A stretch of DNA of 64,000 bases from Klebsiella phage KP182: the sequence record OM337876.1; one strand, 5' to 3'. The first letter of the stretch is position 1. Each line of letters starts with the position of its first letter. Positions 31,545-37,642 of the stretch are shown piece by piece. Made by a program: the position numbers and the translations under genes. The notes under the pieces were generated by a model, which saw only the letters and a list, made by a program, of their open reading frames with translations, was not told where the DNA came from and did not search any database.

Positions 31545-32036
31545 TTAATTATTAACATGCTTGTTAATAAATCTTCTAGCTTGAGTGTGGCTAACGTTTA
31601 AAGCTTCTGCAAATTTTCCAAGTGCTCCATTCCTTGAAAAATCTATAGAGTTGTATATTTTTATTCTTTCTTCAATCGTATCAGGTTTTAGTTTGTTCGC
31701 ATTGTTTTTTGATATTAATTTAATAGATTCGGCAGAATGATGTTTTCCTAAAAATCCCGTATGACATTTACCAAATTTTGGGTTTTTACCATTTAACCTA
31801 GCATCACGTGTATTTTGATTGTTAGTAGCACAATAGATATTATCTAGTGAATAAGGACCTATATCTCCTTTGCGGCACATGCAATATTCAGTGCCTTTAC
31901 GCCCACGCAAATGATATTTACCAGTAGCTTTCCACCATTCAATCCACTGTTCAAATGTTAACTCCCAGCTTATGCCACGACGAATAGCAGCATGCCTTTG
32001 CGAATTATATTTTCCAAAATCTATATCGTTTCTCAT
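31545..32036 (-). CDS. free-standing homing endonuclease-like protein (HNH-type N-domain plus NUMOD3)
   Basis: 163-aa ORF with a GKHHSAESIKLIS NUMOD3 motif and a C-terminal HTH-like VSHTQARRFIN. It is a paralog of the ORF at 36986..37465 and abuts tRNA-Arg. Confidence 0.55.
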   Translation of the reverse strand: MRNDIDFGKYNSQRHAAIRRGISWELTFEQWIEWWKATGKYHLRGRKGTEYCMCRKGDIGPYSLDNIYCATNNQNTRDARLNGKNPKFGKCHTGFLGKHHSAESIKLISKNNANKLKPDTIEERIKIYNSIDFSRNGALGKFAEALNVSHTQARRFINKHVNN

Positions 32037-32055
32037 AATTTTATTCTCATAAATT

Positions 32056-32131
32056 TGGTACCCCCACCAGGACTCGAACCCGGACTACCGACCTTAGAAC
32101 GATCGTGTGCTATCCATTACACTATAAGGGC
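32056..32131 (-). tRNA. tRNA-Arg (anticodon UCU)
   Basis: Cloverleaf with a perfect D arm, T arm GGTTCGAGTCC, anticodon loop GTTCTAA and an encoded CCA. The acceptor stem needs three G-U pairs. Confidence 0.6.
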
Positions 32132-32133
32132 TT

Positions 32134-32220
32134 TGGTGCGTCGAACGAGACTCGAACTCGTACGGGTTTAATCCCGGGAGATTTTAAGTCTCCTTTGTCT
32201 ACCAATTCCAACATCGACGC
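32134..32220 (-). tRNA. tRNA-Leu (anticodon UAA), class II
   Basis: GCGTCGA/TCGACGC acceptor, D arm TTGGAATTGGTAGACAA, anticodon loop CTTAAAA, long variable arm and CCA. Confidence 0.85.
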
Positions 32221-32226
32221 AAATAT

Positions 32227-32354
32227 TTGTTCAGGCAGGACTCGAACCTGCACGACTGATTCCGTCAGCGATTTACCACCGTCGCCAGCATATGATGCAA
32301 TATGCGAGCTCAAAAGGTGTCCGTCACCATGTCTACCGATTTCAACACTGAACA
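32227..32354 (-). ncRNA. 128-nt tRNA-like stable RNA (candidate T4 species-2/rnaD-like)
   Basis: A perfect 7-bp acceptor pairing TGTTCAG...CTGAACA spans 128 nt. It has a Leu-like D arm at the 5-prime end, a canonical T arm GCAGGTTCGAGTCCTGC at the 3-prime end and an internal GCATAT/ATATGC hairpin. There is no canonical anticodon arm. Confidence 0.45.
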
Positions 32355-32365
32355 AGATAATTATA

Positions 32366-32842
32366 TTACCGATTATTTATAGCATTTCTTAAACGATAAA
32401 GTTGATTACAGAATTCGCGTTCAGTCAAAATCGTTTCAGAAATTTTATTTTTACCCATACTGTGAGTGAGCGTAGCATTCCTGGTAGCAGCCAAAGCTTT
32501 TCTGAATCCTTCATTTTTACTAAGTGCATCGTATGCTCCTGTCAGTAAATTCTGATACGCTTCTGAAGCACGATGGATTGGCACGCCTTTCCAATAAAGT
32601 GTTTGAGTTGGCCACCACCGTTTCTTTTTACCTTTGAACTTAGCCGATTTACCAACTAATGTACATACATGTGCTTGCATTTCAGGCGAAGAAAATTTGA
32701 GGGACTGCAAGAATCCCTCCATTGAGGCACATTCTACGCCATCATAGATAAATTTATGAGGAGCAAAGTTGCTCAAAGCACATGATGGATATGAACTACC
32801 TGAACCGATATCCATTACTTTTCCTTCACGTATTTCAACCAA
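32366..32842 (-). CDS. NADAR-domain protein (YbiA-like; putative ADP-ribosyl-nucleic-acid hydrolase)
   Basis: 158-aa ORF with GSGSSYPSCALSNFAPHKFIYDGVECASMEGFLQSLKF, matching the NADAR/DUF1768 core (SNF..F..DG.....SEH.FQ..KF). Confidence 0.6.
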   Translation of the reverse strand: MVEIREGKVMDIGSGSSYPSCALSNFAPHKFIYDGVECASMEGFLQSLKFSSPEMQAHVCTLVGKSAKFKGKKKRWWPTQTLYWKGVPIHRASEAYQNLLTGAYDALSKNEGFRKALAATRNATLTHSMGKNKISETILTEREFCNQLYRLRNAINNR

Positions 32843-36995: not shown

Positions 36996-37465
36996 ATATA
37001 ACTATTTATAAATCTTCGTGCTTGGGTATGCGTAACATTTATGGCTTTAGCATATCTGTTAAGAGCTCCCCATTTTGTCATGTCCATTGAATTATATACT
37101 TCAATTCGTGAAGCAACTTCAGTGTCTGTCAGTTTTGAAGCGCTATTTTCTGAAATCTTTTTACGAGATTCTTCAGTATGATGTTTTCCTTTAAAATTAT
37201 CACACTTGCCGCCATAAGGTTTTACTCCATTTTTAACAGCATCTCGTACATTATCAGCATTTGTAGCACAAAATACATTTGTTGGAGAATAAGGACCTTT
37301 GTCACCTATTCTGCACATGCAGTATTCATGACCTTTACGTCCACGCTCAGATAATTTTCCGGTAGATTTCCACCATTCAATCCAAGTATCATACGTAAAT
37401 TCCCAAGGAATTCCACGATACAATGCATTATATCTTTGTTGTTCGTATTTAATTTTCATAAACAC
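36986..37465 (-). CDS. free-standing homing endonuclease-like protein (paralog of 31545..32036)
   Basis: 159-aa ORF sharing WEFTYDTWIEWWK, EYCMCR.GD.GPYS, GKHHTEESRKKIS (NUMOD3) and VTHTQARRFIN blocks with its paralog. It is flanked by tRNA-Lys and tRNA-Tyr. Confidence 0.55.
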   Translation of the reverse strand: MFMKIKYEQQRYNALYRGIPWEFTYDTWIEWWKSTGKLSERGRKGHEYCMCRIGDKGPYSPTNVFCATNADNVRDAVKNGVKPYGGKCDNFKGKHHTEESRKKISENSASKLTDTEVASRIEVYNSMDMTKWGALNRYAKAINVTHTQARRFINSYIER

Positions 37466-37560: not shown

Positions 37561-37642
37561 AATGGATATTTTTATTTATACTGCCCTGAAATTAATCAGA
37601 GCAGTTGATAGATTAATAATAACAAAGAAAACCTAAAGCATA

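Follow-up and report, generated by a model that had tools for sequence, protein, structure and literature searches.

A conserved RNA gene related to tRNA-Leu(UAA), with a structured insert in place of the anticodon loop, in the tRNA clusters of T4-like phages

The tRNA cluster of Klebsiella phage KP182 (sequence record OM337876.1) contains a 128-nt element (positions 32227 to 32354, minus strand) within the 64-kb stretch of DNA analyzed here (i.e., the window; 64,000 nt in total). The element has the ends of a tRNA gene and something else in the middle. Is it a tRNA disrupted by an insertion, a relative of the stable RNAs of unknown role that T4 encodes in its own tRNA cluster (rnaC and rnaD), or a gene of another kind? 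A first-pass annotation, made from the sequence alone, had described it as a tRNA-like RNA gene in a tRNA cluster rather than a normal tRNA, and our analyses support this description. The element is a real gene whose fold has been under selection. Its kinship is with tRNA-Leu(UAA), and it offers no anticodon that is usable or consistent.

Fold and tRNA-Leu kinship of the element

All 15 tRNA genes that ARAGORN predicted in the window lie on the minus strand, and the reverse complement of 32227 to 32354 is therefore the strand to read. Read on the opposite strand, the many conserved G.U pairs would become C.A; thus, the RNA strand is the minus strand. The RNA reads 5'-UGUUCAG UG UUGAAAUCGGUAGACAU GGUGA CGGA CACC UUUUGA GCUCGCAUAUUGCAUCAUAUGCUGGC GAC GGUG GUAAA UCGCU GACGGAAUCAGUCGU GCAGGUUCGAGUCCUGC CUGAACA A-3', and its position p corresponds to window coordinate 32355 - p. 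The whole gene scored 116 bits (E = 2e-30) with the covariance model, and its ends are common to 24 distinct homologs. A tRNA-Leu(UAA) gene (32134 to 32220, minus strand; ARAGORN; Rfam tRNA, 52.4 bits) begins 6 nt (AUAUUU) beyond the 3' end of the element. The element had been placed directly after this tRNA; on the transcribed strand, it lies 5' (upstream) of it.

The outer parts of the RNA are those of a tRNA. The acceptor stem is formed by UGUUCAG (p1-7; 32348 to 32354) and CUGAACA (p121-127; 32228 to 32234), which pair perfectly over 7 bp, as had been noticed in the first reading. This complementarity is kept in the related phages according to the alignment (95% of the alignment cells paired), with compensatory double changes in six of the seven pairs (e.g., GUACCA/UGGUAC in Cronus and AUUUGU/ACAAAU in ZX14). 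The D arm (UGUUGAAAUCGGUAGACA, p10-26; 32329 to 32345), correctly recognized earlier as tRNA-Leu-like, has a stem of 3 bp (UUG/CAU), in which this phage has a U.U mismatch, and a loop (AAAUCGGUAGA) of the tRNA-Leu type with G18 and G19. Across the family, the pair equivalent to 10:25 is G-C in 10 sequences, A-U in 6, and G.U in 1, and the D-arm bases A14, A15, G18, G19, and A21 are invariant. The first D-stem pair is U.U in the window, KpV477, and KPV15, G.U in Lion_ER11, A-U in VMC03, C.A in Karamvirus, and G-C in most other lineages; this position tolerates mismatches. The T arm is the textbook one that had been described (GCAGG-UUCGAGU-CCUGC, p104-120; 32235 to 32251). It abuts the acceptor 3' strand directly and is paired in 100% of the cells, with double changes in three of its five pairs and an invariant GGUUC.A..CC. 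Upstream of it lies a long variable arm (p89-103; 32252 to 32266) consisting of GAC-(GGAAUCA)-GUC followed by G and U103, the latter being the invariant equivalent of position 48. One G-C pair of this arm is nearly invariant, and the second pair is A-U in 11 sequences and C-G in 11. The last base (A, p128; 32227) occupies the discriminator position, which is A, U, or C among family members, even among close relatives. The element does not encode CCA.

The middle of the RNA had been thought to lack an anticodon arm. In fact, a covarying 5-bp helix occupies the site of the anticodon stem, and only the 7-nt loop is missing. In this long-range helix, GGUGA (p27-31; 32324 to 32328) pairs in the alignment with UCGCU (p84-88; 32267 to 32271) and encloses approximately 52 nt. 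In an alignment guided by the covariance model, 95.6% of its cells are paired and three of the four modelled pairs show double changes. The enclosed sequence forms an irregular rod. Internal loop 1 (5' side CGGA, p32-35, 32320 to 32323; 3' side GUAAA, p79-83, 32272 to 32276) is followed by an inner 4-bp helix, Pb, in which CACC (p36-39; 32316 to 32319) pairs with GGUG (p75-78; 32277 to 32280) according to the alignment and RNAalifold. In the model-guided alignment, Pb is paired in 100% of the cells and all four pairs covary (CACC/GGUG, CUCU/AGAG, GCUU/AGGC, CCUC/GAGG, and GGUA/UGCC). Internal loop 2 (5' side UUUUGA, a U-rich bulge and then GA, p40-45, 32310 to 32315; 3' side GAC, p72-74, 32281 to 32283) leads to the apical hairpin Pc (GCU-C-GCAUAU-(UGCAUC)-AUAUGC-U-GGC, p46-71; 32284 to 32309), whose GCAUAU/AUAUGC stem is the GCATAT/ATATGC hairpin reported earlier. 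Pc is shifted by one column between lineages and was accordingly checked in each sequence; it was found by per-sequence folding in 23 of 23, with lineage-specific stems (GCGUAU/AUACGC, GCUGG/CCAGC, CCAGG/CCUGG, GCCGG/CCGGC, CCCGA/UCGGG, CUCGG/CCGAG, and UGCCAUGU/ACAUGGUA). Seven bases of the rod are invariant (A35, G44, A45, A73, G79, A81, and A82). The 3' side of loop 1 varies (GUAAA, GUAAC, GGAAA, GGAAG, and GAAAC) and always reads G-N-A-A.

Structure statistics were obtained from 23 aligned sequences, primarily in a plain MAFFT alignment that was not fitted to any structure. From this alignment, RNAalifold independently recovered the acceptor, D stem, inner helix, variable-arm stem, and T stem, together with two pairs of the long-range helix at the anticodon-stem position. 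The full model (acceptor 1-7/121-127, D stem, 27-31/84-88, Pb 36-39/75-78, apical hairpin, variable arm, and T arm) was paired in 88.7% of the cells, compared with 29.7 to 45.8% in controls in which the partners were slid, and double changes occurred in 24 of 31 pairs, compared with 5 to 9 in the same controls. With the alignment guided by covariance model R1, these values were 89.3% and 25 of 31. The tRNA elbow and core bases U8, A14, A15, G18, G19, A21, G53, U54, U55, C56, A58, and C61 and the position-48 U are invariant in the 23 sequences. Single-sequence folding of the element gave a z score of -0.37 (i.e., no better than a shuffled sequence), and the support for the fold is therefore entirely comparative. 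The minimum free energy (MFE) structure of the single sequence favours local hairpins whose conservation does not extend beyond the Jiaodavirus and Karamvirus lineages. Between 32267 and 32328, the element contains three copies of GACGG (GUGACGGAC, GCGACGGUG, and CUGACGGAA), which enable two local hairpins in competition with the conserved long-range helices; these repeats, found only in the Jiaodavirus lineage, could represent a conformational switch or a coincidence.

The frame is that of a class II tRNA of the Leu type, since the best matches of the element's covariance model outside the family are phage tRNA-Leu(UAA) genes (41.5 to 58.5 bits). The neighbouring tRNA-Leu scored 58.5 bits, the T4 tRNA-Leu 53.1 bits, and other tRNA-Leu genes 41.5 to 50 bits, whereas all non-Leu tRNAs scored 31 bits or less. 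The element shares with phage tRNA-Leu(UAA), both its neighbour in the window and that of T4, the acceptor/T-arm geometry, a 3-bp D stem, the AAUYGGUAGA loop, A15-U48, and a long variable arm. It differs in being approximately 42 nt longer, in lacking the 7-nt anticodon loop, in its U1-A72 first pair and variable discriminator, and in not encoding the CCA that the real tRNA-Leu(UAA) genes encode. The apical loops vary between lineages (6 nt in the window). Those of some lineages (UUUAAGC and CUUAAGC) are similar to CUUAAAA, the anticodon loop of tRNA-Leu, and the F48-type UUGGUAC resembles a 7-nt anticodon loop. These resemblances faintly hint that the anticodon stem may have been elongated rather than its loop filled.

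The element is widespread. BLAST searches with the window version and two diverged versions returned 196, 136, and 179 phage records, respectively, in overlapping sets. The 24 distinct versions (123 to 130 nt, all with the same boundaries) come from at least eight genera of T4-like phages; carriers belong to Jiaodavirus, Karamvirus, Kagamiyamavirus, Winklervirus, Roskildevirus, Kanagawavirus, and Marfavirus and include Citrobacter phage Ursula. The element always lies within the tRNA cluster, with its ends at those of the acceptor stem in the 24 distinct sequences, and it is retained in hundreds of genomes despite the shuffling of neighbouring genes. The phage of the window is a Klebsiella Jiaodavirus, and its element region is 99% identical to that of KpV477. 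The similarity to PKO111-type phages ends exactly past the discriminator base, beyond which Arg-Leu-Thr tRNAs replace Leu-Arg; the element end is thus a recombination junction in this comparison. The element lies 3 nt after tRNA-Gln-CCA in Ursula and 9 nt after an rnaC homolog in ZX14, arrangements that resemble the dimeric precursors of T4. On the basis of this junction and these two contexts, the element behaves as a discrete, gene-sized module.

A tRNA frame around a structured rod

We consider it probable that the element is a non-decoding RNA gene derived from tRNA-Leu that acts as a natural "tRNA scaffold." Selection maintains its complete tRNA frame, and the anticodon stem closes off a structured insert; these are the two features by which we define a working class of natural tRNA-scaffolded RNAs. 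All class II parts that are read by the maturation enzymes are kept (i.e., the 7-bp acceptor stacked on a 5-bp T stem, the elbow bases G18/G19/U54/U55/C56, A15-U48, and the long variable arm), and the 7-nt anticodon loop is replaced by the conserved irregular rod of loop 1, 4-bp helix, loop 2, and apical hairpin.

With its acceptor/T-arm minihelix and elbow intact, the element would be excised from the transcript of the cluster in the same way as the adjacent tRNAs. It would be co-transcribed with the tRNA cluster and cut by RNase P at its 5' end; its 3' end would be freed by the RNase P cut at the next tRNA and trimmed, and CCA would be added by the host enzyme. The tRNAs of T4 are cut from multimeric precursors by RNase P, some of them need host CCA addition, and many tRNA-like non-tRNAs are also cut by RNase P (PMC11143913). 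The frame would confer stability, and the rod would be the working part, most likely a putative binding surface for a protein or RNA partner. The RNA would therefore act through tRNA mimicry and a specific appended module, not through decoding.

The closest parallel in design is man-made. In the engineered tRNA scaffold of Ponchon and Dardel, the acceptor, T, and D arms are kept and an inserted hairpin takes the place of the anticodon stem-loop; in Escherichia coli, such scaffolds are processed precisely, modified, and stable, and they escape polyadenylation-dependent decay (PMC3753655). The engineered scaffold carries arbitrary cargo, whereas the cargo of the element is natural, conserved, and covarying, and its frame is of the class II tRNA-Leu type.

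Natural parallels are less complete. YrlA, a bacterial Y RNA, is the tRNA-like partner of Ro/Rsr. As in the element, a tRNA-type elbow made of T and D arms is joined in YrlA to a long helix where the anticodon arm would be, and the helix of YrlA binds protein; unlike the element, YrlA is circularly permuted, with its ends in the long helix and its acceptor closed by a loop. It is mentioned in PMC7824862. The element has no match to the Rfam YrlA family, and no Ro gene is linked to it. The tRNA-like domain of tmRNA also uses an acceptor and a T arm for tRNA-type processing in a non-tRNA, but the element has U3-A70 rather than G3.U70, no mRNA-like region, and no pseudoknots; Rfam tmRNA matched only a 17-nt T-arm fragment (7.7 bits; threshold, 47), and ARAGORN found no tmRNA. 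In the TMERs of MHV68 and the t-elements of plant mitochondria, tRNA-like modules attract the enzymes of tRNA processing, by which other RNAs are made or delimited. There, the tRNA-like unit stands in tandem beside its cargo, whereas the cargo of the element is embedded within the anticodon stem.

The rod itself may be more than a spacer. The strands of loop 2 (CACC-UUUU-GA-GCU opposite GGC-GA-C-GGUG) form the series helix, U-rich bulge, tandem G.A, and helix, and the bulge and the first G.A pair are kept in other lineages. Loop 2 thus appears kink-turn-like, the looser term being used since the sequence does not separate a kink-turn from a loop-E motif, and loop 1 appears GNRA-like. Together, the loop motifs suggest a bent, rigid rod rather than a floppy one.

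Several points weigh against this interpretation of the element as a scaffold. The loop assignments are matches to sequence patterns only; the second G.A position is A.U in the EcS1 and F48 lineages, and the loop is arranged differently in Ursula. No shuffle reached the observed value (0 of 500 on four of five measures; unfitted alignment), but the 23 sequences are phylogenetically related, such that this statistic overstates their independence and the comparison with slid partners is fairer. In F48 and Ursula, the comparative fold coincides with the MFE structure; in the others, it lies 0.8 to 8.6 kcal/mol above the MFE. In the window lineage, GGUG-ACGGA-CACC and GCGA...UCGC are alternative local hairpins in competition with the long-range helices. 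Finally, processing and stability are read from the anatomy of the predicted RNA.

Alternative explanations

A more modest role is that of a processing signal, a tRNA-like "punctuation" mark that would let RNase P split an upstream mRNA from the tRNAs, the RNA itself being functionless. In five genera, the element directly follows a protein gene (gp30.3 or a small open reading frame [ORF]) and precedes tRNAs, and no terminator or sigma-70 promoter was predicted between them; in the window, it lies 11 nt past the stop of a gene of the gp30.3 family (Pfam Phage_30_3, E = 6e-56). The tRNA-like t-elements of plant mitochondria are known to shape mRNA ends (PMC1920247). We nevertheless regard this explanation as unlikely. 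A minimal acceptor/T-arm hairpin, or the next tRNA, would suffice for RNase P, and punctuation leaves the selection on the rod helices, loop bases, D arm, and variable arm unexplained. Moreover, no such ORF precedes the element in Cronus, FBB1, ZX14, PEi26, or Ursula, where a tRNA or rnaC comes before it or it stands alone. A functional tie of the element to gp30.3 was also considered and rejected, as gp30.3 is missing from that site in five lineages.

It is very unlikely that the rod is an intron of approximately 45 to 50 nt that is excised before the halves are joined (e.g., by a nuclease and phage Pnk/Rnl) to yield a decoding tRNA. The insert is located inside the anticodon stem, its inner helix has the exact 4-bp length of that in the archaeal bulge-helix-bulge motif, and the 3' side of loop 1 (GUAAA/GGAAA) resembles positions 34 to 38 of Tyr or Ser tRNAs. 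The 7-bp acceptor stacked on the T arm (5-bp stem and GTPsiC-type loop; 95% and 100% of the cells paired, respectively) and the D arm and elbow (U8/A14/G18/G19/A21/U54/U55/C56, invariant in 23) also agree with a decoding tRNA. Other features of a decoding tRNA are absent: the stem encloses 52 nt rather than a 7-nt loop with U33 and an anticodon, and there is neither a consistent identity nor a conserved discriminator. Standard ARAGORN called 0 of 23 family members, and a search of Rfam at the gathering threshold and at E values of up to 10 assigned the element to no family, the tRNA model included; only the neighbouring tRNAs matched. At a relaxed threshold, the intron-aware mode called 23 of 23, and GenBank annotators have also given tRNA labels. 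However, the identities thus obtained are inconsistent (Ala, Thr, Phe, Leu, Pro, Ser, and Ile), with nine anticodons among orthologues; F48 and L015, which differ by one base, were called Pro(cgg) and Thr(agt). The "intron" position ranges from 33 to 37 and its length from 33 to 56 nt, and no member has a U at the would-be U33 after the loop 1 residues are joined. The conserved, covarying loops and helices are as expected for a functional domain, not an excised spacer. Among the known intron types, the bulge-helix-bulge was rejected for its wrong loop shape (internal loops of 4x5 and of 6x3 or 9x6 nt border the 4-bp helix, where the motif has 3-nt bulges on opposite strands), and a group I intron was rejected because the insert of approximately 45 to 52 nt is far too short (the P3-P9 core alone takes roughly 200 nt or more). 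A hammerhead was likewise rejected, as CUGA-type strings are not conserved, and the element matched no Rfam intron.

An aminoacylatable mimic, charged by leucyl-tRNA synthetase (LeuRS) and used off the ribosome or against translation or stringent signalling, appears highly improbable. LeuRS ignores the anticodon, and A14, A15-U48, and the placement of G18/G19 matter for the E. coli enzyme. These features are invariant in the family, and the discriminator is A in this phage. However, A73, the major Leu identity element, is present in only 7 of 23 members, with U or C in the rest, and it differs between close relatives (A in the window and U in VMC03; A in BovUrsus and U in EI). Together with the lack of an encoded CCA, this makes it unlikely that the element is conserved as a LeuRS substrate.

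The first-pass annotation had also suggested homology with the T4 species 1/2 RNAs (rnaC/rnaD), which are described as RNAs of unknown role (PMC3014915, PMC9697503, and PMC12685909). The element lies at a similar site (a T4-type tRNA cluster, next to tRNA-Arg) and has a similar size (128 nt, compared with 139 and 119 nt for T4 rnaC and rnaD). T4 rnaC, a stable RNA of approximately 139 nt, is likewise a non-tRNA in which an acceptor-like stem and a canonical T arm frame a long hairpin, and the two RNAs probably mature in the same way. The suggested orthology is refuted all the same, and even a diverged homologue is extremely unlikely. With the element's covariance model, T4 rnaC scored 14 bits (E = 0.13) and rnaD was unmatched, and BLAST and nhmmer searches with rnaC and rnaD as queries never matched the element. 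An alignment of the element with T4 rnaC, rnaD, and tRNA-Leu matched nothing except the D and T arms; similarity to rnaC is confined to the T arm, and rnaC lacks the D arm that the element has. In the loci that carry the element, rnaD gave no BLAST, nhmmer, or covariance-model match, and its alignment was at chance level.

Furthermore, true rnaC orthologues coexist with the element in the window, ZX14 (L030, 347 to 485; 86%), EcS1, Kc304, a Karamvirus contig, and Virsaitis27, and the two are therefore separate families. The orthologue in the window (34731 to 34592, minus strand; 140 nt) comes directly after tRNA-Pro and shares a GCUGAGUAGCG...GUUCAGAUAUG core and the T arm with T4 rnaC. Its acceptor is a perfect, covarying stem of 7 bp (CGGUAUG/CAUACCG), whereas T4 and most rnaC homologs have two U.U mismatches there (CGNUUCG/CGUUYCG). 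It is seemingly unannotated in KpV477-type records. In Kanagawavirus (Enterobacter phage ZX14, L030, 347 to 623; Edwardsiella phage PEi26, L031), the rnaC homolog adjoins the element with a 9-nt spacer; no tRNA follows this pair, which lies upstream of an e.7-like gene, as in the T4 rnaD-rnaC neighbourhood.

The earlier suggestion of a tRNA disrupted by an insertion holds as regards a tRNA-Leu-type origin and the extra sequence in the anticodon region but fails as regards a broken gene. One record carries a pseudogene label, a U.U mismatch interrupts the D stem of this phage, the discriminator is unconserved, and the single-sequence fold is no better than shuffles. Even so, a decaying tRNA-Leu pseudogene with a junk insertion that persists unselected by linkage is hardly credible and is excluded because the insert covaries and its loop bases are invariant, there being compensatory changes in every helix (two inside the insert included) across at least eight genera, invariant unpaired bases, a length held at 123 to 130 nt, and retention in hundreds of genomes while the neighbours shuffle.

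Genomic setting, wider pattern, and significance

Downstream of the element, tRNA-Leu(UAA) is followed by tRNA-Arg(UCU) (32131 to 32056, minus strand). The block from 31545 to 32220 is a mosaic: it reads Leu-Arg and a 163-amino-acid ORF without a Pfam hit in the window and KpV477; in Lion_ER11, a different ORF of 218 amino acids stands between Leu and Arg; and PKO111 and VMC03 have the order Arg-Leu-Thr. The tRNA-Leu allele of the window (D arm UGUUGGAAUUGGUAGACA) differs from the PKO111 type (UGGUGGAACUGGUAUACA). This mosaic suggests cassette exchange of the homing-endonuclease type, with junctions at gene ends.

Upstream of the element, a T4 late-promoter octamer (TATAAATA) lies at 32374 to 32381 (minus strand; 19 nt before the element). 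The same octamer is found at 37003 to 37010 (minus strand), 7 nt upstream of tRNA-Lys, and at 37573 to 37580 (minus strand), 12 nt upstream of tRNA-Tyr. With 10 occurrences in the window and 6.3 expected, the motif shows no enrichment, and it is kept upstream of the element only in Jiaodavirus; a dedicated late promoter was thus rejected. A 77-amino-acid minus-strand ORF (32122 to 32355) that overlaps both the element and tRNA-Leu is spurious and not a gene. Spurious ORFs over the RNA gene also occur in several GenBank records (e.g., L026, 566 to 670, and "hypothetical protein" entries in the Roth and 15882 phages). The labels given to the element in GenBank include tRNA-Val pseudogene, tRNA-Phe, tRNA-Ser, tRNA-Thr, tRNA-OTHER ("abnormal tRNA"), and hypothetical ORF, and in some records there is none.

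Similar frames occur outside the T4-like phages. In the IMG/VR database, a strict pattern (acceptor and D arm) recovered only 10 loci, mostly from the same isolates. A loose search (i.e., a Leu-type D loop and a T loop 72 to 100 nt apart), whose hits were mostly chance matches before filtering by the covariance model, left approximately 35 full-length matches (116 to 174 nt) in viral contigs unrelated to T4-like phages. These have perfect 7-bp acceptors, Leu-type D arms, canonical T arms, and wholly different interiors (70 to 110 nt), and in many of them, a long-range stem at the anticodon-stem position encloses 27 to 82 nt. The frame is often AGUCAGG...UGGCGGAAUUGGUAGACGC...ACAGGUUCGAAUCCUGUCCUGACU; in thirteen of them, it is nearly identical (AGUCAGG...CCUGACU), while their interiors do not align with one another. 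Among three copies of the GGUGGUA type, one interior stem differs by a compensatory change (GAUAG/CUAUC and GAUGG/CCAUC). One 1.1-kb locus carries three tRNA-framed RNAs in tandem. Examples from the matched loci (L033 to L111) are L059 (11773 to 11911), L071 (5738 to 5862), L037 (4060 to 4191), and L058 (10 to 148, 397 to 512, and 589 to 707). Standard ARAGORN called none of these matches, and Rfam gave marginal generic-tRNA matches for a few and no dedicated family. A BLAST search with an AGUCAGG-type RNA against cultured phages returned only generic tRNA-Leu D-arm matches, which leaves this class untied to known phages. It is possible, as a tentative reading, that phages widely use the tRNA-Leu frame as an expression and stabilization scaffold for diverse RNA cargoes, with the Straboviridae element as one conserved member; T4 rnaC may be a more degenerate case of the same strategy.

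Stable tRNA-like RNAs from the T4-type tRNA cluster have been known since the 1970s, and the element is a separate, second family of such RNAs with a different and better-defined architecture. Within the libraries that we were able to search, we found no Rfam family and no paper describing it, an absence that speaks for those libraries only. Its covariance model could become an Rfam family, and its recognition explains a recurrent annotation error in which one gene has received many tRNA, pseudogene, and ORF labels. The element is broadly conserved in phages of Klebsiella, Enterobacter, Serratia, and Erwinia that are therapeutic candidates. Its clear division into frame and rod makes the old question of function testable, as the rod can be mutated or swapped while the frame stays intact, and the RNA could serve as bait for its partner. 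If the frame is indeed used so widely by phages, a whole layer of phage noncoding RNAs lies hidden as "abnormal tRNA," "pseudogene," unannotated sequence, and spurious ORFs. If the class seen in the IMG/VR contigs is real, phages would have arrived at the "tRNA scaffold" principle well ahead of RNA engineers.

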